The notes under the pieces: model-generated
What the model was told of the DNA's origin: nothing
The model's database searches: none
Seen by the model: the letters and a program-made list of their open reading frames with translations, nothing else
Shown here: in pieces, positions 21-13,202 of the stretch
Numbering within the stretch: position 1 is the first letter of the stretch
How the letters are laid out: each line of letters opens with the position of its first letter
Assembly: GCA_963771175.1 (NCBI GenBank)
Contig: CAVYSY010000032.1
Span: 288,001-352,000 of the forward strand
Length of the DNA: 64,000 nt
Source of the DNA: an uncultured delta proteobacterium
GTDB taxonomy: Bacteria > Myxococcota > Myxococcia > Myxococcales > Myxococcaceae
Reading direction: 5' to 3'
Position numbers and translations under genes: made by a program

Positions 21-1370
21 TCAGCGCGTTTCGGTGCTGGATTTCACGGGCGCTCGCGCGGCGTTGTTGGCCAGGCTGTTCAAGTAGTTCAGCGCCATCT
101 TGAGCTGATGGTCCGTCAGCTTCGCCGTCACGTCCCAGTCCCGCAGGCCCTCGGGCAGTCCCTTCAGCTTCGCAACCTCGGGGGTCTCGCTCACCACCGT
201 GGGCTCCGCCTTGAAGTGCCGCTGCAGGTCCTTCTCCCGAGGCACGTCCTTCTCCCCCTTCCCTCCCGGCTTCTCCGGCACCCAATAGTCCGGCGTGATG
301 CCCTTCTCCTGGATGCTCCGCCCCTTCGGCGTGTAGTAGCGCGCGATCGTCAGCTTCAGCCCCGAGCCGTCCTCCAGCTCGATGACCGTCTGCACGCTCC
401 CCTTCCCGAAGGTCTGCGTGCCCAGGATGGTCGCGCGACCGTGGTCCTGCAGCGCTCCCGCGACGATCTCCGAGGCCGAGGCGCTCCCCGCGTTCACCAG
501 CACCACCAACGGGTACTCCGGCTCCGTGTCCCGGTCCTTGCTCCGCTCCTCGGCCCCGGTGCTCCCGTTGCGCCCGCGCGTGCTCACGATGGGCAGGTTC
601 CCCGGCAGCCACAGGTCGCTCATCGCCACCGCCTGGTCCAGCAGCCCGCCCGGGTTGTTGCGCAGATCCAACACCACCCCGCGCAACGGCTTGCCCCCGT
701 TCAATCCGCGCAGTCGCTCCAGCTCCTTGCGCAGGTACAGGTCCGTGCGGTCCTGGAAGTTCTTCACCTTCAGGTAGGCAATCCCTCCGTACAGCGCGCC
801 CTCCACCGAGATGATGCGGATGTGGTCCCGGATGATGGCCAGCTCACGCGGCGCGCTGAAGCCCTCGCGCATGATGGTCAGCAGCACCCGCTTGCCCGCG
901 GGGCCTCGCATCCGCTGCAGCACGTCCGACAGGTCCATCCCCTGCGTGCTCGCGCCGTCGATGGCGACGAGCTCATCCCCCGCCCGGATGCCCGCGCGCG
1001 CCGCCGGAGTGTCGTCGATGGGCGCCACCACCACGATGCCGTCGCCCTTGCGCGCCACCTCGATGCCCAACCCTCCGAACTCGCCGGAGGTGTCGATCTT
1101 CATCTCCTTGTAGACCTCGGGCGGCATGAAGACGGTGTGCGGATCCAACGTCTCCAGCATCCCCTTGATGGCGCCGTGCATCAGCTTCTGGCTGTCCACC
1201 GACTCCACGTAGTTGTTCTCCACGTACGAGAGCACCCGAGCGAACACCTCGAGCTGCTCGTAGGTGGTGGTGCGGGTGGTGGAGGGCTCGCGTTCATCGG
1301 CCCGCGCCGCGGGAGCCAGGAGCAGCAGGCCCGCGGCGAAGGCCGCGCGCCAGGAGTGCAGGGAGCGCAT
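21..1370 (-). CDS. ctpA: S41A carboxy-terminal processing protease (signal peptide, PDZ, S41 catalytic domain)
   Basis: Motifs GEFGGLGIEV, DLRNNPGGLL, SASASEIVAGALQD, TFGKGSVQ; start taken at MRSLHSW (ATG 1370), followed by a signal peptide. Confidence 0.93.
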   Translation of the reverse strand: MRSLHSWRAAFAAGLLLLAPAARADEREPSTTRTTTYEQLEVFARVLSYVENNYVESVDSQKLMHGAIKGMLETLDPHTVFMPPEVYKEMKIDTSGEFGGLGIEVARKGDGIVVVAPIDDTPAARAGIRAGDELVAIDGASTQGMDLSDVLQRMRGPAGKRVLLTIMREGFSAPRELAIIRDHIRIISVEGALYGGIAYLKVKNFQDRTDLYLRKELERLRGLNGGKPLRGVVLDLRNNPGGLLDQAVAMSDLWLPGNLPIVSTRGRNGSTGAEERSKDRDTEPEYPLVVLVNAGSASASEIVAGALQDHGRATILGTQTFGKGSVQTVIELEDGSGLKLTIARYYTPKGRSIQEKGITPDYWVPEKPGGKGEKDVPREKDLQRHFKAEPTVVSETPEVAKLKGLPEGLRDWDVTAKLTDHQLKMALNYLNSLANNAARAPVKSSTETR

Positions 1371-1534
1371 GTAGGTCGAGGGTCCTTTCCCCGAAAGACC
1401 GCGCCCCGACTCTAGCACCCGGCCCGCGCCCCGGTCCCGCTACAAGCCGGGTGGCTTCCGCGAACTGCGCCGGTTTCGACAGCAGCTCGCCAGGCTGCTC
1501 CTCGTGCGGGAGGTGGAAGACGAGCCTGCCAGCA

Positions 1535-4058: not shown

Positions 4059-5846
4059 TCAAGAGCTGGCGTGACCGAAGCGGGTGGCGTCCTCCGTGTT
4101 CTCGATGGTGATGCCCAGTTCATCCCGGAGCACCTCCATCAAGTCAGGCCGCAAGCGGATGGTGCCCTGGCGCAAGCGGTGATTGAGCGAGAGATCCGCA
4201 CTGGAGAGTCTCCGTGCCGGGTGGGAGCGCTGGAGCAACGCATTGATCTGGCGCTGAGCACCTTCCAGGACGCGAAGCGCTGAACGCTCGATCGCCAGGA
4301 ACTCCGCGACGGCGTCCGCCACGGCGTCGAGGACGTCTCTCCGGGCCCCCGAGGGAGAGCCCGCGCGCGAGTGGATCAACTCCCGGAGTCGCAGGCGGGC
4401 ATTCCCATCCACCTCATCCCTCGTGGGGGTGAACGCGTCCCGCAGATGAAGCAGCGAGTCCTCTCGGAAACCCCTCAGGCCGCGCTGGACGCGCGCGTAC
4501 AGCTCGCTGTAGGCGGCCTCGGCCCAGACTCGCGGGGCGGAGTGGTGCAATCCAGAGTTCATCAGGATCATCTGCCAATCGCGCTCGACATGCTCGCGCA
4601 GCCGGCCCAGGACGCCACCCGGCTCATCCTCCACCTCGAGAAGCGCCGCGTGAATCATTTCGTAGGCGCGGCACATATAGCTCCAACGGTTGGACTGGAC
4701 AGCATAGAGCTGGAGCCCGAGCAGCCCGTAATCCATCGCCGCGGGGATCTCCGCATCCCACGCCGCCGTGGGGATGGGAGCACCCGTCACGGGCTTGCCA
4801 TCCATCAGCGTCGCGAGGAACTCCTCCACCATGTGCGGGGGACCGGCGCAGACGCCGCGAGTCGACAGGAAGTGGTTGCCCTGTTCGGTGTAGCGGTACA
4901 GCTCGGCCGCCGTGATGGGCGTGTCGTACGTAATCGAACTCTCCAGGAGCAGGAGCAGATAGGACGCCATCATCCGCACGCCGTCCGTCACCCGGAACAT
5001 GGAGGACAGCACGGGATCCAGCGTGCCGTTGGGGACGGGGGCGTTCGCGCGCATCAGCAACAGGCTCGGCAGGGCCAGCACGGCACAGGACAGGGCGTGA
5101 AGATCCCCCAGCCGCCAGCGCCCGTCTGGGAGCAGGGGATGGCGGCGCAGGAACTCCTCGCGAACCGCGAGCACCCCCCGCAGCACGGGCTTCCAGTGCC
5201 GCGTCATCGACTTGAGCGCCGTCACGTTCATCGGCGCCTCGTCCCGATAGCGGCTGCCCGGATAGGGACACACCCGCCACTCCGTCGGAAGCTTCATGCG
5301 CATGGCGTCGGGGAAGACGTTCATCTCCCCGACATGGCGTCCCTCCGCGTCGAGCGCCGGGTGGGCGATGCGATGCACCGGGATCACCGTTTCGAGGAAG
5401 CCCAACTCCAGCGGCCGCCCCTCCAACCGCTCCATCACCTGAGGACAATCCGGGTTCCACCACAGGGGCTCGCTGGGGGCTTCCCGCCGAGCCTCGGCCT
5501 CCAGGAATCTTTGATGCGAGTGACTCTCGGAAGGTGGCTTCGGGGCCTCGCGCGAGAGGATGCCCTCGGCCAACAGGGCCTCGAGCAACTCCCTCACGCG
5601 CTCCCAGGGGTAGGGCTCACCCGAGCTCCACCCGGTGGCGCTGGCCGCCATGAACTGGTCCTGCGTGAGCAGCGTCTCGCCAAAGGAGAGCAGGTCCGGC
5701 TCATCGAGCGTGATCTCCTTGACGCCAAAGAAGATGTGCAGCTCCCTGTTTCCCTCGGGGGTGGTCACGTACTCGCGCGTGGAGCGACGCCTCAGGGGCA
5801 AGTACAGCGTCTCATGGGGATCAACCGACACGGCTTCCTGACTCAT
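4059..5846 (-). CDS. 595-aa hypothetical protein with a putative N-terminal RRE/PqqD-like winged helix; candidate RiPP-modifying enzyme
   Basis: Intact long ORF with AGGAG RBS. Residues ~20-100 read as three strands then three helices ending WERVRELLEALLAEGILSRE. Function is inference. Confidence 0.75.
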   Translation of the reverse strand: MSQEAVSVDPHETLYLPLRRRSTREYVTTPEGNRELHIFFGVKEITLDEPDLLSFGETLLTQDQFMAASATGWSSGEPYPWERVRELLEALLAEGILSREAPKPPSESHSHQRFLEAEARREAPSEPLWWNPDCPQVMERLEGRPLELGFLETVIPVHRIAHPALDAEGRHVGEMNVFPDAMRMKLPTEWRVCPYPGSRYRDEAPMNVTALKSMTRHWKPVLRGVLAVREEFLRRHPLLPDGRWRLGDLHALSCAVLALPSLLLMRANAPVPNGTLDPVLSSMFRVTDGVRMMASYLLLLLESSITYDTPITAAELYRYTEQGNHFLSTRGVCAGPPHMVEEFLATLMDGKPVTGAPIPTAAWDAEIPAAMDYGLLGLQLYAVQSNRWSYMCRAYEMIHAALLEVEDEPGGVLGRLREHVERDWQMILMNSGLHHSAPRVWAEAAYSELYARVQRGLRGFREDSLLHLRDAFTPTRDEVDGNARLRLRELIHSRAGSPSGARRDVLDAVADAVAEFLAIERSALRVLEGAQRQINALLQRSHPARRLSSADLSLNHRLRQGTIRLRPDLMEVLRDELGITIENTEDATRFGHASS

Positions 5847-5943
5847 GCGAGGGCTCCTGGGAGCAAGCCCGGGATGTTCAGGCGCGGAGGGGCTGCTCCA
5901 TACGGGTGGGGTTCTCCTTTGGGCTGAGCACTGGGCGCGGCCT

Positions 5944-5959
5944 TGTGATTCGCGTCACT
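5944..5959. promoter_or_regulatory. CRP/FNR-family-like palindromic site TGTGA-N6-TCACT
   Basis: tgtga ttcgcg tcact: one mismatch from TGTGA-N6-TCACA, about 100 bp upstream of the 595-aa gene. Confidence 0.4.
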
Positions 5960-5997
5960 TCCGGACGTCCTGCTGGGAGGACAAGCGGGCTGCCCAC

Positions 5998-6042
5998 AAA
6001 AACACAGTCGCCAGCAGGCGGCGCACCGCCCACTGGCGACTG
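5998..6042 (-). terminator. Intrinsic terminator / stabilising hairpin after the small peptide gene
   Basis: cagtcgccag (6005-6014) pairs with ctggcgactg (6033-6042); inner ggcgg/ccgcc stem; followed by TGTTTTT on the minus strand. Confidence 0.75.
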
Positions 6043-6065
6043 GAATCCAACGCGTCTGCGTCTAC

Positions 6066-6155
6066 CTACGCCAGCTGGTAGCTGCGGCAACCGCCGCCGA
6101 GGCTGATCGTATAAACGCTGGCCAGACCGCCACGAATGTTGGTCTTGATCTTCAT
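6066..6155 (-). CDS. 29-aa peptide MKIKTNIRGGLASVYTISLGGGCRSYQLA; putative RiPP precursor
   Basis: Translated by hand (too short for the ORF track). GAGGAG RBS 7 nt before the ATG, TAG stop, terminator downstream, leader-like segment ending in GG. Confidence 0.8.
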   Translation of the reverse strand: MKIKTNIRGGLASVYTISLGGGCRSYQLA

Positions 6156-6305
6156 GTGCTCGCTCCTCGTTCGTACTGCGTTTCATCCGGACTGAGTACG
6201 GAGCGACGCGTTTGTGCTTCTGCTTCGAGTTCTTTTCGACAGGCCTGCCAGGAGGACGAGCAGGCAGCCCTGTCGGAGCAGTGAAGTGGGCCCCCCCAGG
6301 CTCCC

Positions 6306-7166
6306 CTACAGCCCGGAGGCGTCCGCGAACTGGAGCAGTTCCGACAGCAGCTCGTCTGGCCGTTCCACATGCGGAATGTGGCCGAAGCCATCCACCACCC
6401 TCACCCGCGCATGGCCCGGCAGGTGCGAGCGGAAGAAATCCAGGCTCTGGAGGGGCAGCAACTTCTCACTCCCGCCCCACACGAACAGCACCGGCATGGC
6501 GAGCGCCTTGAGCACCTCGGGCTTGAGGTACTCGCCCGTGGCCAGCGCGTCCTCGCTTAGCGCGCGCACCGCGGGGGTGGCGTAGATGCCGCGCACCATG
6601 TCGGCGAACAGCATCATCAGCCAGGGCGGACGGTGGAAGAGGCGCCGGGTGAGCGCGCGAGACTGTTCGGCAGTGCGCACATTCATGGCCTCCAGCACCT
6701 CGCGGATGGGCTCGTGCCCCACATCCGCTCCCGCCGGCGCCACCAGCCCCAGGGCCTTCACCAACTCCGGGTGCTCCGCCGAGAGCTGCACCGACATGGC
6801 CCCGCCCAGCGAGTTGCCCACCACGAAGGCCGGCCCGCCCACCACCTTCCGGCAGTACTCCACCAGCATGTCGTACTGGCCGCGCACGCACGTCGGCCCG
6901 AGGCAGTACTCCGGCGAGAAGCCATGCCCCGGCAGGTCCACCGCCAGCACCCTCTCGAAGCGCTTGGAAAGCCCGAAGAAGAGGCGCGCGAAGCCGTTGG
7001 CCGCTCCGCCCAGCCCGTGCACCAGCAGCACCGGCGGACCCTTGCCGCTCCCCTTCAGCTCGTAGTGGTGGAGCGGCTGACCGGCCACGTCCACCAGCGC
7101 CGACCGCACCCCGCGCGCCACCAGCATGCGGCGGGTCATCTCTTGGAGGCCTGAAATGAGATCCAC
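6306..7166 (-). CDS. Alpha/beta-fold hydrolase
   Basis: LLVHGLGG, DLPGHG, GNSLGG nucleophile elbow, GHIPHVE; start uncertain (GTG 7166 or upstream). Confidence 0.88.
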   Translation of the reverse strand: MDLISGLQEMTRRMLVARGVRSALVDVAGQPLHHYELKGSGKGPPVLLVHGLGGAANGFARLFFGLSKRFERVLAVDLPGHGFSPEYCLGPTCVRGQYDMLVEYCRKVVGGPAFVVGNSLGGAMSVQLSAEHPELVKALGLVAPAGADVGHEPIREVLEAMNVRTAEQSRALTRRLFHRPPWLMMLFADMVRGIYATPAVRALSEDALATGEYLKPEVLKALAMPVLFVWGGSEKLLPLQSLDFFRSHLPGHARVRVVDGFGHIPHVERPDELLSELLQFADASGL

Positions 7167-7205: not shown

Positions 7206-8351
7206 TTAGCGCGCGGCAGCCAGCCAGGGGGCCGGATCCACGGCCTGCCCGGCCCGGCGAATCTCGAAATACAGGTAGGCGCCCTTGAGGGAGCCCGTGT
7301 CACCCACCTCGCCCACCACCTCGCCGGCCGTCACCTGGGCTCCCACCTGGGGAGTGACGGAGGCCAGGTGCGCCACCAGCGAGTGGTAGCCGCCCCCATG
7401 GTCCAGGATGAGCAGGTTGCCGTAGCCGCGCAGCCAGCCCGCATAGGCCACGGTGCCCTCCGCCACCGCCTTCACCGGCGTGCCCACGGGCGCGCGGATG
7501 TCCACGCCCTTCTGCACGGTGACGGTGTTGAAGCGCGGGTTCACCACCTTGCCGAAGCCCACCTCGATGACGCCCGGCGCGGGGAACGGCAGCTTGCCCT
7601 TGAGCGCCCCGAAGCCGGATGTGGCCGGGCCCTCGTTCAGGTCCTGGATGACGCGGCTGAGGTCCGCGTCCGCCAGCTCCAGCTCGCGCACCATGCGCCG
7701 CGCCAGCTCGGCCTCGCCCTTGATGGCGCCCACCACCTCCTCCAGCGCCTCCTGCTGCGCCTTCGCCAGCCCCGCCTGCTCCCGCAGGAAGCCGAGCCGC
7801 ACGTCCAGCGAGCCCTGCAGTCGACGCAGCTCGGCCGCCGCCTGGCGCCGCAGTCGCGCCACCCGCTGCACCGTGCGCAGCAGCCGCAGGTCCTCCTCCA
7901 GCGTCGCCCGCAGCGCCCGCGAGCGCCACACCATGGCGGAGAAGTCCCTCGCGCTCAGCAGCACCTCCAGGGGCCGGCGCCGCATCATCCGGTACATGCC
8001 CCACAGCCGCGGCGACAGCCGGCGCATCTGCGTGCGCAGCATCTGCTGCGTCAACGCGTCCTCCTGCTCGGCCACGGCCAGCCGCTTGCGGAAGACGGCC
8101 AGGTCCCGCTCCAGCACCTTCACCCGCTGCGAGCTGGTGGCCGCCCGCTGCTCCACCATCTCCAGCACCTCGAGCGCGGACACCTTGCGCGACTCGATGA
8201 GCGCGAGCGCCGCCCGCTGCGTGGCCAGCCTCTCGCGGATGGCCGCCTGCTGCGACGCCTCGTCCAGCGCGGACGGCTGCGCCTCGGCCCCGTCCTGCGC
8301 GAGGGCCGCCGCACCACACAGCAGCAGTGAGAGGAGGACGAGCCGGCTCAT
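7206..8351 (-). CDS. envC: Murein hydrolase activator EnvC (coiled coil + degenerate M23 domain)
   Basis: Signal peptide, coiled coil, KGVDIRAP..GYGNLLILDHG..YLYFEIRR; follows ftsX. Confidence 0.88.
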   Translation of the reverse strand: MSRLVLLSLLLCGAAALAQDGAEAQPSALDEASQQAAIRERLATQRAALALIESRKVSALEVLEMVEQRAATSSQRVKVLERDLAVFRKRLAVAEQEDALTQQMLRTQMRRLSPRLWGMYRMMRRRPLEVLLSARDFSAMVWRSRALRATLEEDLRLLRTVQRVARLRRQAAAELRRLQGSLDVRLGFLREQAGLAKAQQEALEEVVGAIKGEAELARRMVRELELADADLSRVIQDLNEGPATSGFGALKGKLPFPAPGVIEVGFGKVVNPRFNTVTVQKGVDIRAPVGTPVKAVAEGTVAYAGWLRGYGNLLILDHGGGYHSLVAHLASVTPQVGAQVTAGEVVGEVGDTGSLKGAYLYFEIRRAGQAVDPAPWLAAAR

Positions 8352-9250
8352 ACCCGCAGGAATCGCCCCACCGCGATGAAGCTGCCGCCCAGCCCCAGCG
8401 CGCAGCCCGCCACCAGCAGCTCCAGGGCGATCCTCGGCTCCAGCAGCGGCACCATGCCTCCGGGCCCCACCAGGAAGGAGAACAGTGACGCCAGCCCCGG
8501 CCCCACCAGCCGCTCGAAGGTCAGCAGGGCCGCCAGCGCCACCACGGCCCCGAGCAGCCCCTGCAGGAAGCCCTCGATGAGGAAGGGCGCCTTGACGAAG
8601 CGGTCCGTCGCGCCCACCAGCTTCTGGATTTCAATCTCCCCGCGCCGCGCGTAGATGGCGAGCTGGAGCGTCGCGGAGACGATGACCACCGTGGCCAGCA
8701 GCACCACCGCGAAGGCGATCCATCCGCCGTAGCGTAGCGCCTTCGAGATGGCCGACAGCCGCTCCACCGCCTCCTCGCCGTAGTCCACGCCGGTGACACC
8801 GGGCATGGTGCGCAGCTCCTGCGCGAGCGCCTTCAGCTCGCCGGGCGTGCGCCGCTCCGAGGGCACCTCCAGCTCCAACGAGGGCGGCAGCGGGTTCTCC
8901 GGCAGGTGCGTCAGCGCTTCGCCCAGGTCGCCCAGCTCACGCTCGAGGCGCTCGAGCGCCACTTGAGGAGGCACCAGCGTGGCCCGGCCTCCGCTGGTGG
9001 TTTCCATCCGCTCGCGCAGCACCGCGGCGCCCTCCTCGTCGAGCTCGGGCGACAGGTACACCGTCACCTGCACCTCGCCGCCCAGCGAACCGAGCAGCCC
9101 ATCCACCATCCGTCCCACGGCCTGTGCCAGCCCCGCGGAGAAGAGGGCGATGGCGATGGTGGTCACCGCGATGAAGTGGATGAAGGGCGCGTGCCGCAGG
9201 CCCGAGGCCGCCGAGCGCCAGAAGTAGGCCGCCTTCGCCAGCGCGCTCAT
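8348..9250 (-). CDS. ftsX: Cell division permease FtsX
   Basis: ENPLPPSLE, RRGEIEIQKLVGAT..PFLIEG; between ftsE and envC. Confidence 0.92.
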   Translation of the reverse strand: MSALAKAAYFWRSAASGLRHAPFIHFIAVTTIAIALFSAGLAQAVGRMVDGLLGSLGGEVQVTVYLSPELDEEGAAVLRERMETTSGGRATLVPPQVALERLERELGDLGEALTHLPENPLPPSLELEVPSERRTPGELKALAQELRTMPGVTGVDYGEEAVERLSAISKALRYGGWIAFAVVLLATVVIVSATLQLAIYARRGEIEIQKLVGATDRFVKAPFLIEGFLQGLLGAVVALAALLTFERLVGPGLASLFSFLVGPGGMVPLLEPRIALELLVAGCALGLGGSFIAVGRFLRV

Positions 9251-9942
9251 CCCGCCGCCATCCGCCGGGCGGCCTTCACGCCGTCCTCGTCCGAAACGAT
9301 CATCCCCCGCTCCAGCCGCAGGGTGCGCTTCTGGTAGCGGGTGATGAGGCTGGTGTCGTGGGTGGCCACCATCACCGTGGTGCCGCGCACGTTCACGTCC
9401 ATCAGCAGGTCCATGATCTCCAGCGTGAGCGCCGGGTCCAGGTTCCCCGTGGGCTCGTCCGCCAGGAGGATGGTGGGATCGTTCACGAGCGCCCGGGCGA
9501 TGACGACGCGCTGCTGCTCACCACCCGAGAGCTTCAGCGGCAGGGAGTCCGCCTTGTGCTGCAGGCCCACCAGCTTGAGCATGCGCTGCACGCGATCGCG
9601 CGCCTCGGCGCGGGGCACCCCGAGCACGTCCAGGGCGAAGGCCACGTTGTCGGACACCGTGCGGTGCGGCAGCAGCTTGAAGTCCTGGAACACCACGCCG
9701 ACGTTGCGGCGCAGATAGGGGATGGCCGACTCGCGGATGCGCGCGATGTTGCGCCCCCCCACGAGCACCTGTCCCTTGGTGGCCTTCTCCGCGCAGAAGA
9801 TGAGCTTCATGAGCGTCGTCTTCCCCGCGCCCGAGGGCCCGGTGAGGAAGACGAACTCGCCCTTCTCCACATGGAGGTTGATGTCCGAGAGGACGGGCGG
9901 ATCCCCGGGGTACGCCTTGTAGACGTGGAACATCTGAATCAT
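9247..9942 (-). CDS. ftsE: Cell division ATP-binding protein FtsE
   Basis: [41 protein letters not shown]. Confidence 0.95.
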
Positions 9943-9955
9943 GGGCGGGGCGATT

Positions 9956-10633
9956 ATGGCCCTGCTCGTGCCACCTATGCCACGGTGGGCGCGTGGCCAC
10001 GCCCAACTCCCCGAGTGCGACCTCCCCCTCGCCCTCCCGCACCCGCCGTTTCGGGCTGCTCGCCGGGCCGATTGCCGCCGCGGCCCCGATGCTCGTCCCC
10101 TCGGGGCTCCACACGGTGCCCGGCCAGGGACACCGCCCGGCCGCCGCCGCCGCCGTGGCCGCCTGGATGGCCCTCTGGTGGTTCACCGAGGCCGTCCCCA
10201 TGGCCTGGACCGCCCTCCTCTCCCTCGTCCTCTTCCCCGCGCTGGGTGTTTTCGACACCAGCGGCCTGCCCGCCTCCCTCGGCCGCGCCGCCCTGCCCTA
10301 CAGCCCTACGTCGACCCCTACATCTTCCTCTTCCTGGGGGGCATGGCCCTGGGGGCCGCGCTGGAGCAGTGGCACCTGCACCGCAGAATCGCCCTCCTCA
10401 TCATGCGCGCCATCGGCACCTCACCCCAGCGGCTGCTGCTCGGCATGCTGGTGGCCACCGCGACCATCTCGCTGTGGATTTCCAACACCGCCACCGCGGT
10501 GATGATGGTGCCCATCGGTCTGGCGCTCATCGCCCAGCTCGAGGCCAGCGAGGGCCGCCGGCTGGGGCATTTCGGCGCCGCGCTGATGCTGGGCGTCGCC
10601 TACGGCTCCAACATCGGAGGTATCGGGACGAAG
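9956..10633 (+). repeat. Direct repeat copy 1 (678 bp): upstream region + 5' part of the SLC13 permease gene
   Basis: Aligns by eye with 11675-12344 from atggccctgctcgtgccacct to atcgggacgaag; carries an extra 8 bp at ~10295-10309. Confidence 0.92.
9993..10633 (+). pseudogene. Truncated, frameshifted 5' duplicate of the SLC13/DASS permease
   Basis: Same peptide (WMALWWFTEAVPMAWT..SNIGGIGTK) as the gene at 11712; frameshift from the gccctac duplication; homology stops after GTK. Confidence 0.85.
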
Positions 10634-10755
10634 CACATGTTTTCTTCGGAACAAACTCTTTGGACTCCCGGCCTCCTCCCATCCGCCTTCCGTACCATGG
10701 AGGTTGTTGAGCATGAGTGTCAGGAAGAACGGATAAGTACGTGGCGGACAAAGAG

Positions 10756-11220
10756 ATGAGATTGATTGTTTTGATGACCGCCATGGCGGTGCTCAGCGTC
10801 GGATGCGCCCACGGGCAACGGCCAGAAAACCGAATCTACGTCATCTCCGAGGATGCGCGTGGAGTCGGCTCCGCTCTCGGCACTGGCGGTGCTGGCTTCC
10901 GCGACTGCGATGCGGAGCATGCCCAATGCTTCAAAGAGTGTTGGAACGCCCCTACCCTGCCATGGCCTCACACGAAACGGGACGAATGGTATAACGAATA
11001 TTGCACCAGGGAATGCCGCAAGCAGTATATGGAATGCGAAAAGGAGAATGAGAAGAAAGCGAAAGAACTGAAGTTCTCGCGCGTTGAGGACGCGGTTGGA
11101 TGGATCCGGGCGCACAAGACCGAAGTGGCGCTTGGTACGGTCGTCATCATCGCTGGCGTTGCCTTCGTCATTACGACTGGTGGCTCTGGCGCGCTGATTC
11201 TGGCTCCTCTTGCCCTCTAA
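10756..11220 (+). CDS. Cys-rich lipoprotein with hydrophobic C-terminus; toxin-like
   Basis: Lipobox LSVG-C; Cx6Cx3C...Cx3Cx6C; C-terminal VALGTVVIIAGVAFVITTGGSGALILAPLAL; more AT-rich than the flanks. Confidence 0.75.
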   Translation: MRLIVLMTAMAVLSVGCAHGQRPENRIYVISEDARGVGSALGTGGAGFRDCDAEHAQCFKECWNAPTLPWPHTKRDEWYNEYCTRECRKQYMECEKENEKKAKELKFSRVEDAVGWIRAHKTEVALGTVVIIAGVAFVITTGGSGALILAPLAL

Positions 11221-11232
11221 CCTGGTGCACCC

Positions 11233-11610
11233 ATGACCTATCATTCAAACTTCGATGTTGATGCCGTCATGAAGACGCTCGGCACCGTGGGCGCGAAGTA
11301 CCCAGAGGGCACGCCGGAAGACGAGGCGCTCCGGATTGCCTCGGTGGCGTTGCTTTACCTCCGTGACATCCAGAAACTGGATGAATACCGCGATTACTTT
11401 CAGAGGTTCTTCACCTATAAGCCGGTGACCATTGCTCAAACGTTCGTAACGAGAGAGGAAGCGGACAAGTGGCTCGCCAGTGGAAATGCCAGGGATGGCG
11501 ATCTCGTCAAAATCGCTGACCAGGGCTTTGTCGTGTATGACATGCCGAAGGGATTGAAGTTCGTCCCGAGGCCCCTGCCGGAAGAACTGGAATCTCCAGA
11601 TTCGAAGTAG
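11233..11610 (+). CDS. 125-aa hypothetical protein; immunity-like partner
   Basis: Starts 12 bp after the lipoprotein gene on the same strand with similar atypical composition; no signal peptide. Confidence 0.75.
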   Translation: MTYHSNFDVDAVMKTLGTVGAKYPEGTPEDEALRIASVALLYLRDIQKLDEYRDYFQRFFTYKPVTIAQTFVTREEADKWLASGNARDGDLVKIADQGFVVYDMPKGLKFVPRPLPEELESPDSK

Positions 11611-11674
11611 GCCCCTCCCATGGAGCGGCACGCCTTTCGGCCAGATGGCCACATCAGGAACCAACCCCGGGCCC

Positions 11675-12344
11675 ATGGCCCTGCTCGTGCCACCTGTGTC
11701 ACGGTGGGAACGTGGCTTCCCGCTCGACCCGGAGTGCGCCCCCCACCTCGCCGTCCCGTGTGCGCCTGGTTGGCCTGCTCGCCGGGCCGCTTGCCGCCGC
11801 CGCGCTCCTGCTCATCCCCTCGGGGCTTCACACCGTGCCCAGCATGGGCCACCGCCCCGCCGCCGCCGCTGCCGTGGCCGCCTGGATGGCCCTCTGGTGG
11901 TTCACCGAGGCCGTCCCCATGGCCTGGACCGCCCTCCTCCCGCTCGTCCTCTTCCCCGCGCTGGGTGTTTTCGACACCAGCGGCCTGCCCGCCTCCCTCG
12001 GCCGCGCCGCCCTGCCCTACGTGGACCCCTACATCTTCCTCTTCCTCGGCGGCATGGCCCTGGGCGCCGCGCTGGAGCAGTGGAACCTGCACCGGCGCAT
12101 CGCCCTGCTCATCATGCGCGCCATCGGCACCTCGCCCCAGCGGCTGCTGCTCGGCATGCTGGTGGCCACCGCGACCATCTCGCTGTGGATTTCCAACACC
12201 GCCACCGCGGTGATGATGGTGCCCATCGGTCTGGCGCTCATCGCCCAGCTCGAGGCCAGCGAGGGCCGCCGGCTGGGGCACTTCGGCGCCGCGCTGATGC
12301 TGGGGGTCGCCTACGGCTCCAACATCGGCGGGATCGGGACGAAG
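11675..12344 (+). repeat. Direct repeat copy 2 (670 bp)
   Basis: Near-identical to 9956-10633. Confidence 0.92.
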
Positions 12345-13202
12345 ATTGGCAGTCCCACGAACTCCGTCTTCGCGGGCGTGGCCTCGCGGCGGCTGGCCAC
12401 CGAGGTGGGTTTCATCGAGTACATGGTGGCCGCCCTGCCCTTCGTCGTCCTCTTCCTTCCGCTCGTGTGGTGGGTGCTGTGGCGCAAGGGGCGCGAGGAT
12501 GCGCCTGGGCCCCGGGCAGGGGGTGGACGTCATCCAGCGAGAGCTGGCCGCGCTCGGGCCGCTGTCGGGTGGCGAGAAGGTGGTGGGCACCGTCTTCCTC
12601 GTGGCCGCGGTGCTGTGGATGGGAGGGGACTTCCTCCGGGGCGTGCTCACCCCGTGGGTGGCCTCGGCCTTCGGCGGCTTCAAGCTGCTGGGCAAGCACT
12701 ACGAGGCGGGCGTGGCGCTGCTCGGCCGCCGGGACGCTGGCGCTCCTGGGCCGGCTGTCGCTGGCGGGCCCTCGCCCGGGTGCCCTGGGACACGCTGCTG
12801 CTGCTGGGAGGAGGCTTCGCGCTCGCCGCCGGCATCGAGGGCAGCGGCCTGTCCACGTACATGGCCTCGCGACTGGCGGGCCTCGAGTCCCTGGGCGCCC
12901 CCGCCCAGTACGGCGCCGTGGCCCTGGCCACCGTGCTGCTGTCCGCCGTGGCTTCCAACACGGCCACGGTGAACGTGCTGCTCAACGTGCTGCCCGCCTC
13001 GCTGCCCCTGCTCGCGGTGAGCACCTACGCCTCGTCGTGCGACTTCGCCCTGCCCGCGGGCACTCCGCCCAACGCCATCGTCTTCGGCAGTGGCTACGTG
13101 CGCCTGCCCACGATGATGAAGGTGGGGGTAGCGCTGGACGTGCTCGCCGCGGCGCTCCTCACCGTCTACGGACTCGTGTGGGTGCGCTTCGTGCTCGGCT
13201 GA
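11712..13202 (+). CDS. SLC13/DASS family anion:sodium symporter (apparent frameshifts ~12500-12780)
   Basis: WISNTATAVMMVPIG, GGIGTKIGSPTN, ASNTAT, FALPAGTPPNAIVFGSG; the middle part lies in another frame. Confidence 0.88.
   Translation: MASRSTRSAPPTSPSRVRLVGLLAGPLAAAALLLIPSGLHTVPSMGHRPAAAAAVAAWMALWWFTEAVPMAWTALLPLVLFPALGVFDTSGLPASLGRAALPYVDPYIFLFLGGMALGAALEQWNLHRRIALLIMRAIGTSPQRLLLGMLVATATISLWISNTATAVMMVPIGLALIAQLEASEGRRLGHFGAALMLGVAYGSNIGGIGTKIGSPTNSVFAGVASRRLATEVGFIEYMVAALPFVVLFLPLVWWVLWRKGREDAPGPRAGGGRHPARAGRARAAVGWREGGGHRLPRGRGAVDGRGLPPGRAHPVGGLGLRRLQAAGQALRGGRGAARPPGRWRSWAGCRWRALARVPWDTLLLLGGGFALAAGIEGSGLSTYMASRLAGLESLGAPAQYGAVALATVLLSAVASNTATVNVLLNVLPASLPLLAVSTYASSCDFALPAGTPPNAIVFGSGYVRLPTMMKVGVALDVLAAALLTVYGLVWVRFVLG

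Follow-up and report, generated by a model that had tools for sequence, protein, structure and literature searches.

Among peptides that are made by the ribosome and then modified after translation (RiPPs), the described systems closest to the locus reported here are the NHLP/Nif11 systems, with a Gly-Gly-type cleavage site, a three-part exporter (C39 ATP-binding cassette (ABC) protein, second ABC protein and HlyD; TIGR03796/TIGR03797/TIGR03794) and precursor genes that are often multiple and hypervariable, the maturases fused to a RiPP recognition element (RRE; lasso B1/B2, NisB/MibB, McbB/MccB and PqqD-containing radical SAM proteins), and the MNIO (DUF692) systems (methanobactins, bufferins, TglH, ChrH), whose enzymes transform cysteine in ribosomal peptides (PMC13056109). 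A survey of structure-detected RREs from 2025 reports about 5,000 new RRE fusions, with 21% of the retrieved proteins lacking a Pfam match, and counts its RRE fusions to unannotated domains in the thousands (PMC12710340). An earlier note on a 64,000-nucleotide stretch of DNA from an uncultured member of the Myxococcaceae (GCA_963771175.1, contig CAVYSY010000032.1, positions 288,001 to 352,000; hereafter the window) had suggested a two-gene RiPP system of this general kind, consisting of a hidden gene for a 29-aa peptide and a gene for a 595-aa protein of no recognised family. From the analysis of this pair, which is conserved in many bacteria of soil and water, and of its homologues, the locus is probably a RiPP-type cassette of an undescribed class, and, as judged by sequence comparison, the family most likely makes a chemically modified peptide of an undescribed kind. 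Comparison across loci has shown the small gene to encode a putative precursor, with a very short conserved leader of the double-glycine type and a hypervariable core.

Both genes lie on the minus strand of the window. The precursor peptide gene (6155-6066; 29 aa plus stop) was recovered with an open reading frame (ORF) listing at a minimum of 25 aa and translates to MKIKTNIRGGLASVYTISLGGGCRSYQLA, exactly as had been claimed for an ORF missed by the ORF track. Its first 10 residues, MKIKTNIRGG, form the leader (6155-6126), and the core LASVYTISLGGGCRSYQLA (6125-6069) carries a single Cys within a G-G-G-C-R-S-Y motif. The GAGGAG Shine-Dalgarno sequence described for this ORF is present (6168-6163, minus strand), 7 nt ahead of the ATG, and so is the hairpin, which resembles an intrinsic terminator with its T-run (5995..6042, minus strand) and lies between the two genes. 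Its stem comprises 17 pairs, 12 of them G-C (6042-6005), and is followed by TGTTTTTGTG; the region folded as RNA gave -46.2 kcal/mol (z = -4.14), a stability that none of 200 shuffles reached. The gene for the 595-aa enzyme of an unnamed family (5846-4059) is, as noted before, an intact ORF on the same strand; it starts 159 nt downstream of the hairpin stem and has an AGGAG ribosome-binding site (5858-5854) 7 nt ahead of its ATG. Placed between the two genes, such a hairpin would yield more peptide transcript than enzyme transcript.

Homologous loci were collected by a scan of species-representative genomes, which confirmed 190 relatives and returned 75 named loci. A strict regular expression for the leader (M[KRQ][IVLMF][KRQ][TS].[IVLM][RKQ][AGS]G) detected leader-bearing small ORFs in 63 of the 75 loci (17 among the first 20), and a relaxed version added 8 of the 12 remaining loci, with leaders carrying His at position 8 or Asn/Thr variants. 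Taken together, 71/75 loci contain 1-11 small leader-bearing ORFs on the strand of the enzyme gene, and the expectation of the earlier note that homologues would be accompanied by peptide ORFs of the type MK(I/V)KTx(I/V)(R/K)(A/G)G, conserved in the leader and variable in the core, was borne out at this frequency. Two general features of RiPP loci were found, namely a short gene-encoded precursor with conserved leader and variable core and, in the same 71 loci, a linked gene for a putative modifying enzyme. With an intermediate regular expression, 152 peptides were obtained from 70/75 loci, 149 of them on the strand of the enzyme; relative to the enzyme gene, 38 of these 149 are upstream and 111 downstream, with 130 at a distance within 1 kb, and a Shine-Dalgarno-like motif precedes 145 of the 152 ORFs. 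A single peptide copy is the commonest state (38 loci), and arrays reach 7 (L058, L066) and 11 copies (L088). These tandem arrays occur in metagenome-assembled genomes (MAGs) of Kofleriaceae (L088:6689-7741, 11 copies; L058:9860-10761, 7; L066:4186-7461, 7) and combine near-identical leaders with varied short cores.

When the strict expression was applied to the six-frame translation of the 9,833,394-base genome from which the window derives, four matches were detected, each a short ORF that shares the strand of a full-length enzyme gene and is no more than about 600 nt away from it: the window peptide and three tandem ORFs directly after a second enzyme copy on contig C36. A chance ORF was rejected on this ground, as 4/4 matches adjoin the two enzyme copies. 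In addition, 115 distinct leader DNA sequences were counted in which synonymous codons are free at the conserved residues (for Gly10, GGC 59, GGT 49, GGA 6 and GGG 1); it is thus the peptide that is under selection, and not a motif in RNA or DNA. This bears on the idea that the small ORF is a regulatory upstream ORF or attenuator without a product, its role being control of the enzyme gene together with the hairpin. The order in the window (small ORF, terminator hairpin, large gene) is as expected for an attenuator; however, 111/149 same-strand peptide genes are downstream of the enzyme gene, often as tandem arrays, the 10 N-terminal residues are conserved under synonymous codon drift with one Cys kept in the C-terminal part, and C39 exporters are linked to the loci. 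The attenuator was therefore rejected, with a residual likelihood close to nil, from the mostly downstream position of the peptide genes, the conservation at peptide level and the linked exporters. The window peptide gave no Pfam match at E<=1 and no usable one in NCBIfam, and NCBIfam searches with 10 diverse precursors at E<=10 led to two chance rows only.

The leader of the family reads M-K-(I/V)-K-(T/S)-x-(V/I/L)-(R/H)-(A/G/S)-G over 10 residues with nearly fixed positions. Among 145 unique peptides, position 10 is Gly in all and position 9 is Ala in 68, Gly in 66 and Ser in 11, so that Gly-Gly, Ala-Gly or Ser-Gly stands at -2/-1 of the putative cleavage site in 145/145. The cores of 5-47 residues (median 16) are hypervariable and, apart from one feature, cannot be aligned: exactly one Cys is found in 133/145 (two or three in 7), and in 129 of the 133 single-Cys cores an Arg or Lys is no more than 3 residues away, with Arg occupying position -2 relative to the Cys in 63, -1 in 35 and +1 in 17. 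Between 0 and 37 residues follow the Cys. Examples are ...GGGCRSYQLA (window), ...GRGCGGGGGFPVLL..., ...PRACGGVITV, ...RDCGGGTVIWI and ...YVPPVSRCVGI, and the minimal cores are as short as NLCLR and RMICA. Of the Ser, Thr, Tyr and Cys that had been considered as targets in the window core, the Cys with its neighbouring Arg is conserved throughout the family and the others are not; Tyr is conserved only in the clade of the window itself, as C-R-x-Y. When 75 enzymes were placed on a FastTree, the class of core was seen to go with the clade of the enzyme, which is descriptive since related sequences share labels. The window enzyme falls within a clade of 12 rows, 9 of them labelled C-R-x-Y, and L027 and L029, two paralogues within one Archangium violaceum genome, are each accompanied by a different class of core. 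A lipoprotein signal peptide was rejected as an explanation of the Cys, which is outside any lipobox in peptides that have no hydrophobic core.

A second type of leader-bearing peptide without Cys was also observed (L067:7715, L083:6929, L084:7631; plus strand, upstream of the enzyme gene). In Methylococcaceae and Crenothrix loci the Cys-less type has cores rich in His, Asp and Gly (..DDAPGHVR.G.G..DAPNH..), and these peptides may give rise to another product, possibly one that binds metal, or may not be substrates at all.

For the large protein, the claim that residues ~20-100 have RRE topology agrees well with structure prediction. An AlphaFold2 model of the 595-aa protein computed with 30 homologues (pLDDT 88.7, pTM 0.84) shows an RRE-like winged-helix domain at residues ~13-100 (5547..5810, minus strand) with strands 22-28, 34-40 and 43-47 and helices 50-59, 67-72 and 81-93, i.e. 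the predicted beta3-alpha3 arrangement of an RRE, and VIA-align matched this domain to PqqD and other RiPP leader-binding domains, lasso B1 among them. The putative catalytic part, residues 105-595 (4062..5534, minus strand), is mostly helical in a model of this part alone that was computed from 36 sequences (pLDDT 92.1, pTM 0.93). An alignment of 36 diverse sequences, 34-75% identical to the window protein, contains 24 invariant columns, mostly polar or charged, including E152, H162, D166, R170, G173, E174, N176, P179, R183, C193, G197 and R199 as well as N207, R229, S281, R285, D288, G289, R291, G331, G335, P336 and R540, and C333, E342 and Y373 are near-invariant.

No known family could be assigned to this part, in line with the statement of the earlier note that the remaining ~490 aa carry no known maturase signature; nor was there any full-length match to a known non-RiPP family, which that note had named as a finding that would speak against its proposal. 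The 595-aa protein matched 0 Pfam families at E<=1 and in NCBIfam gave only a 12-bit chance match; with 30 members at E<=5 the most recurrent Pfam match (3/30, E 0.025) was noise. Neither Pfam nor NCBIfam revealed LanB, LanC, LanM, LanKC, LanL, YcaO, ATP-grasp, P450 or MNIO in the enzyme, and for a radical SAM protein both the CxxxCxxC motif and the Radical_SAM domain of Pfam are missing, the five Cys being at 134, 193, 254, 333 and 392. Searching PDB sequences with the family profile led to a best E of 0.25, Foldseek against PDB with the full model and with the catalytic part returned nothing at E<=1e-3 (template-modelling (TM) scores <=0.16), and in ESM Atlas the whole protein hit winged-helix clusters only and residues 105-595 hit nothing. 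The protein has one hydrophobic stretch only and no signal peptide; it therefore looks soluble and is predicted to be cytoplasmic.

The conserved residues would also suit a leader-guided Cys/His/Asp protease or transpeptidase (C193 or C333, H162, D166), which trims the tail or cyclises via the Cys without decoration of a side chain. RRE-plus-cysteine-protease fusions exist in lasso peptide B proteins, and AgrB cyclises AgrD into a thiolactone. In keeping with this, Cys, His and Asp are invariant or near-invariant, the very variable length of the post-Cys tail (0-37) is as expected for a part that is removed, and lasso B1 domains are among the fold matches of the N-terminus. Nevertheless, no protease or transglutaminase family was detected, the 490-residue helical domain has no protease-like fold match, and a C39 peptidase encoded in loci of the family would already serve to remove the leader, so that a protease or cyclase appears improbable as compared with an enzyme that modifies the Cys side chain.

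The enzyme family is large. In a word-seeded search 8000 proteins were scored and 711 of them reached E<=1e-3; among the 120 matches listed there is none with a precomputed Pfam domain, the named rows among them are 'hypothetical' or 'uncharacterized' save two named only as metagenome assemblies, and their taxa comprise Archangium, Vitiosangium, Hyalangium, Pyxidicoccus, Myxococcus, Polyangiaceae and Myxococcales. With the catalytic part as the query of an exhaustive profile search, 891 cluster representatives were obtained at E<=1e-3, of which 648 remain at <=1e-10 and 212 at <=1e-30. An enzyme match was present in 15/41 related genomes and in 13/17 other genomes of the same genus, with up to five per genome. 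The 75 loci stem from Myxococcota (Archangium, Vitiosangium, Myxococcus, Corallococcus, Kofleriaceae, Haliangiales), Methylococcales (Methyloglobulus, Crenothrix), Burkholderiales (Rubrivivax, Lautropia, Ramlibacter), Steroidobacter, Reyranellaceae, Ectothiorhodospiraceae and single MAGs labelled Planctomycetota and Acidobacteria.

In addition to the full copies in the window and on contig C36, the same genome encodes a distant 466-aa paralogue on contig C50 (G000:C50:1848-3248, minus strand; L096), which lacks the RRE, is 29% identical over residues 162-552 and adjoins a PRMT/PrmA-like methyltransferase and an MFS transporter (L096:3284-4666 listed alongside). Its RRE-less family has 23 matches only, all myxobacterial or unnamed and hypothetical, and gave no functional lead. 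Three long relatives (P0230, P0244 and P0249; 917-949 aa) combine RRE and catalytic domain with DUF7059 and an MTS/PrmA-type methyltransferase; an NPPY motif was seen in the sequence of P0249. A fourth fused relative, P0241 (826 aa), carries an N-terminal GNAT domain. A metagenome scan with P0249 yielded no locus of the methyltransferase-fused relatives, and no full-length fused form was present among 401 Myxococcota genomes searched.

For the partner genes, all ORFs in 8-kb flanks were clustered, with overlapping shadow ORFs set aside. Of the 75 loci, 40 have an ABC protein cluster, 32 an HlyD adaptor of ~400 aa and 16 an MbnH-like di-haem enzyme; for the 51 loci whose flanks reach 6 kb or more on each side, the numbers were 29, 25 and 12. 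The ABC cluster consists of a form of ~890-970 aa and one of ~715 aa, side by side in the loci mapped in detail, and the large protein begins with Peptidase_C39 in the two examples in which this was demonstrated (L031, E 2e-19; C36 copy, E 4.4e-13). Its best or near-best NCBIfam model is TIGR03796 at 168.5 and 192 bits (cutoff 853.3), and TIGR03794 scored 30.9 and 33.4 bits (cutoff 156.2); being below the curated cutoffs, these exporters are not members of the NHLP/Nif11 export equivalogs. The system had been described as one of two genes, which is correct for the precursor/enzyme pair but incomplete for many loci, where a C39 ABC exporter, a second ABC protein, HlyD and sometimes an MbnH-like enzyme are added. 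In the window's own genome the only exporter of the C39 ABC type is on contig C36, in divergent orientation to the enzyme copy there, and the window pair would thus have to use it in trans as a satellite. On that contig the second ABC gene appears as two ORFs (L097:4613-6850; 5804-6850 and 4613-5680), which may be due to a frameshift, an assembly error or a wrong choice of start. The MbnH/MauG-like di-haem peroxidases (550-760 aa) are TIGR04039-like but below cutoff, and their genes are directly beside the enzyme gene at L037:6122-7786, L092:5663-7879, L077:5622-7892 and 10181-12370, and others. Since some of these loci have cores without any aromatic residue, they are not simply aromatic cross-linkers.

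A rival view is that the peptides are not modified at all. Unmodified pheromones or bacteriocins with a double-glycine leader would be cut by C39 and exported in the same way, and the 595-aa protein could then be an immunity protein, chaperone, export adaptor or sensor. The G-G, A-G or S-G end of the leader in 145/145 peptides, the frequent neighbourhood of C39 exporters and the tandem arrays of up to 11 variant copies, which resemble pheromone or bacteriocin arrays, would all be explained, as would a large protein with no recognisable cofactor or catalytic motif and no fold match. Such a role is nevertheless difficult to reconcile with an N-terminal domain that is predicted to have RRE topology and structurally matches RREs, with 24 columns that stay invariant in 36 sequences of as little as 34% identity, as is typical for an active site, and with core classes that track enzyme clades. 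Moreover, unmodified bacteriocins would hardly be expected to have cores as short as 5 residues with one invariant Cys, and the large protein looks cytoplasmic and soluble with its one hydrophobic stretch. We therefore regard unmodified peptides as unlikely.

For the preferred reading, a modified peptide, the following sequence of events is proposed. The leader would dock as a strand on the predicted N-terminal winged helix of RRE type. The helical domain would then modify the single Arg-flanked Cys, the one core residue conserved family-wide. Cleavage of the leader after Gly-Gly and export of the product by the C39 ABC transporter with the second ABC protein and HlyD would follow, giving the order docking, modification, cleavage/export. 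As to the chemistry, a metal-assisted activation of the Cys thiol by H162, C193, C333 and carboxylates, for S-alkylation or oxidation, is a weak guess, prompted by the invariant or near-invariant His, Cys and carboxylates and the many invariant Arg. The fused methyltransferases, the neighbour of the C50 paralogue and the MbnH-like genes do not fix the reaction. The products could be small secreted signals or metal-binding peptides.

Several observations weigh against this proposal. In four of the 75 loci a peptide is missing; for L021 and L073 the contig ends on the side in question, and for L056 and L071 there is no explanation. Five of the 145 cores are without Cys. The Pfam PqqD model PF05402 matched the N-terminus in 0/30 members at E<=5, and the catalytic part has no CxxxCxxC, HExxH, P-loop, GxGxxG or DDxxD, so that with no cofactor motif enzymatic activity is judged from conservation alone. 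By tblastn, no exporter was detected beside the window copy, within the contig neighbourhood of the 64-kb window. Finally, in two soil RNA libraries contigs cover parts of the enzyme gene (90-99% likeness) and the peptide is not covered; these contigs indicate neither expression nor silence of the peptide. Public sequencing runs contained at most 0.34 of the sampled words in any run.

The surroundings of the pair in the window are ordinary housekeeping genes. Upstream neighbours are ftsE, ftsX, an M23 peptidase and an alpha/beta hydrolase, of which ftsE-ftsX-M23 peptidase (EnvC-like) form a cell-division cluster (7206-9942, minus strand); downstream are an RluD-type pseudouridine synthase and a CtpB-like S41/PDZ protease (21-1418, minus strand).

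Full-text literature searches found no paper on the enzyme or peptide family, and the matches for 'MKIKT' were, by their titles, unrelated signal-peptide, phage-display or expression papers. No mention of the enzyme family was found in passages of PMC12710340, and one supplement of that survey has no entry for Archangium, Vitiosangium or Methyloglobulus; its other supplements may list family members. A new RiPP class is probable, and we give an even chance to the full extent of this view: a new enzyme fold and family, novel chemistry on an Arg-flanked Cys, and a new RiPP class with a 10-residue leader that is spread across Myxococcota, methanotrophic and other Gammaproteobacteria, Burkholderiales, and single MAGs labelled Alphaproteobacteria (Reyranellaceae), Planctomycetota and Acidobacteria. 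New RiPP classes now rarely come with a maturase outside every known family. As the substrate is encoded beside the enzyme gene, the likely target (one Cys with an Arg next to it) is obvious and cores are as short as five residues, the chemistry is directly testable. The family is large, occurs in multiple copies in social, predatory myxobacteria and is present in methanotrophs, and its products may play a part in how soil and water communities signal, compete or handle metals. A 10-residue leader together with an RRE-fused enzyme would in addition be an attractive minimal tag for peptide engineering.

In comparison with the known systems, the family shares with NHLP/Nif11 systems the putative Gly-Gly-type cleavage site, the often multiple, hypervariable precursor genes and, in loci that encode an exporter, its three-part architecture, but the leader has 10 residues only and no NHLP or Nif11 domain, the maturase is of an unnamed family and not LanM, a cyclodehydratase or a radical SAM protein, and the exporters, at 168-192 bits, are outside the TIGR03796 equivalog. 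From the RRE-fused maturases it differs in the lack of a PF05402 match in 30 members and in a catalytic domain for which the sequence and fold searches gave no match to any of them. As in MNIO systems, a Cys in a short motif is the only strictly conserved core feature, and some relatives are found in methanotrophs and beside MbnH-like di-haem genes; however, no MNIO/DUF692 domain or TIM-barrel was detected, and the enzyme is helical with one invariant His. CaaX prenylation and the AgrD/AgrB thiolactone are functional analogies with a single Cys near the C-terminus followed by few, mostly aliphatic residues, as in many cores here, for example ...SRCVGI, ...RCAGY and ...CLR, but the tail in this family varies between 0 and 37 residues and those motifs do not include an Arg beside the Cys. 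In its use of a leader, an RRE and export by a peptidase-containing ABC transporter (PCAT), the system follows the logic of known RiPPs; what is new is the family of the maturase, the leader of 10 residues and the Arg-Cys signature of the core, with a fair chance of new chemistry.

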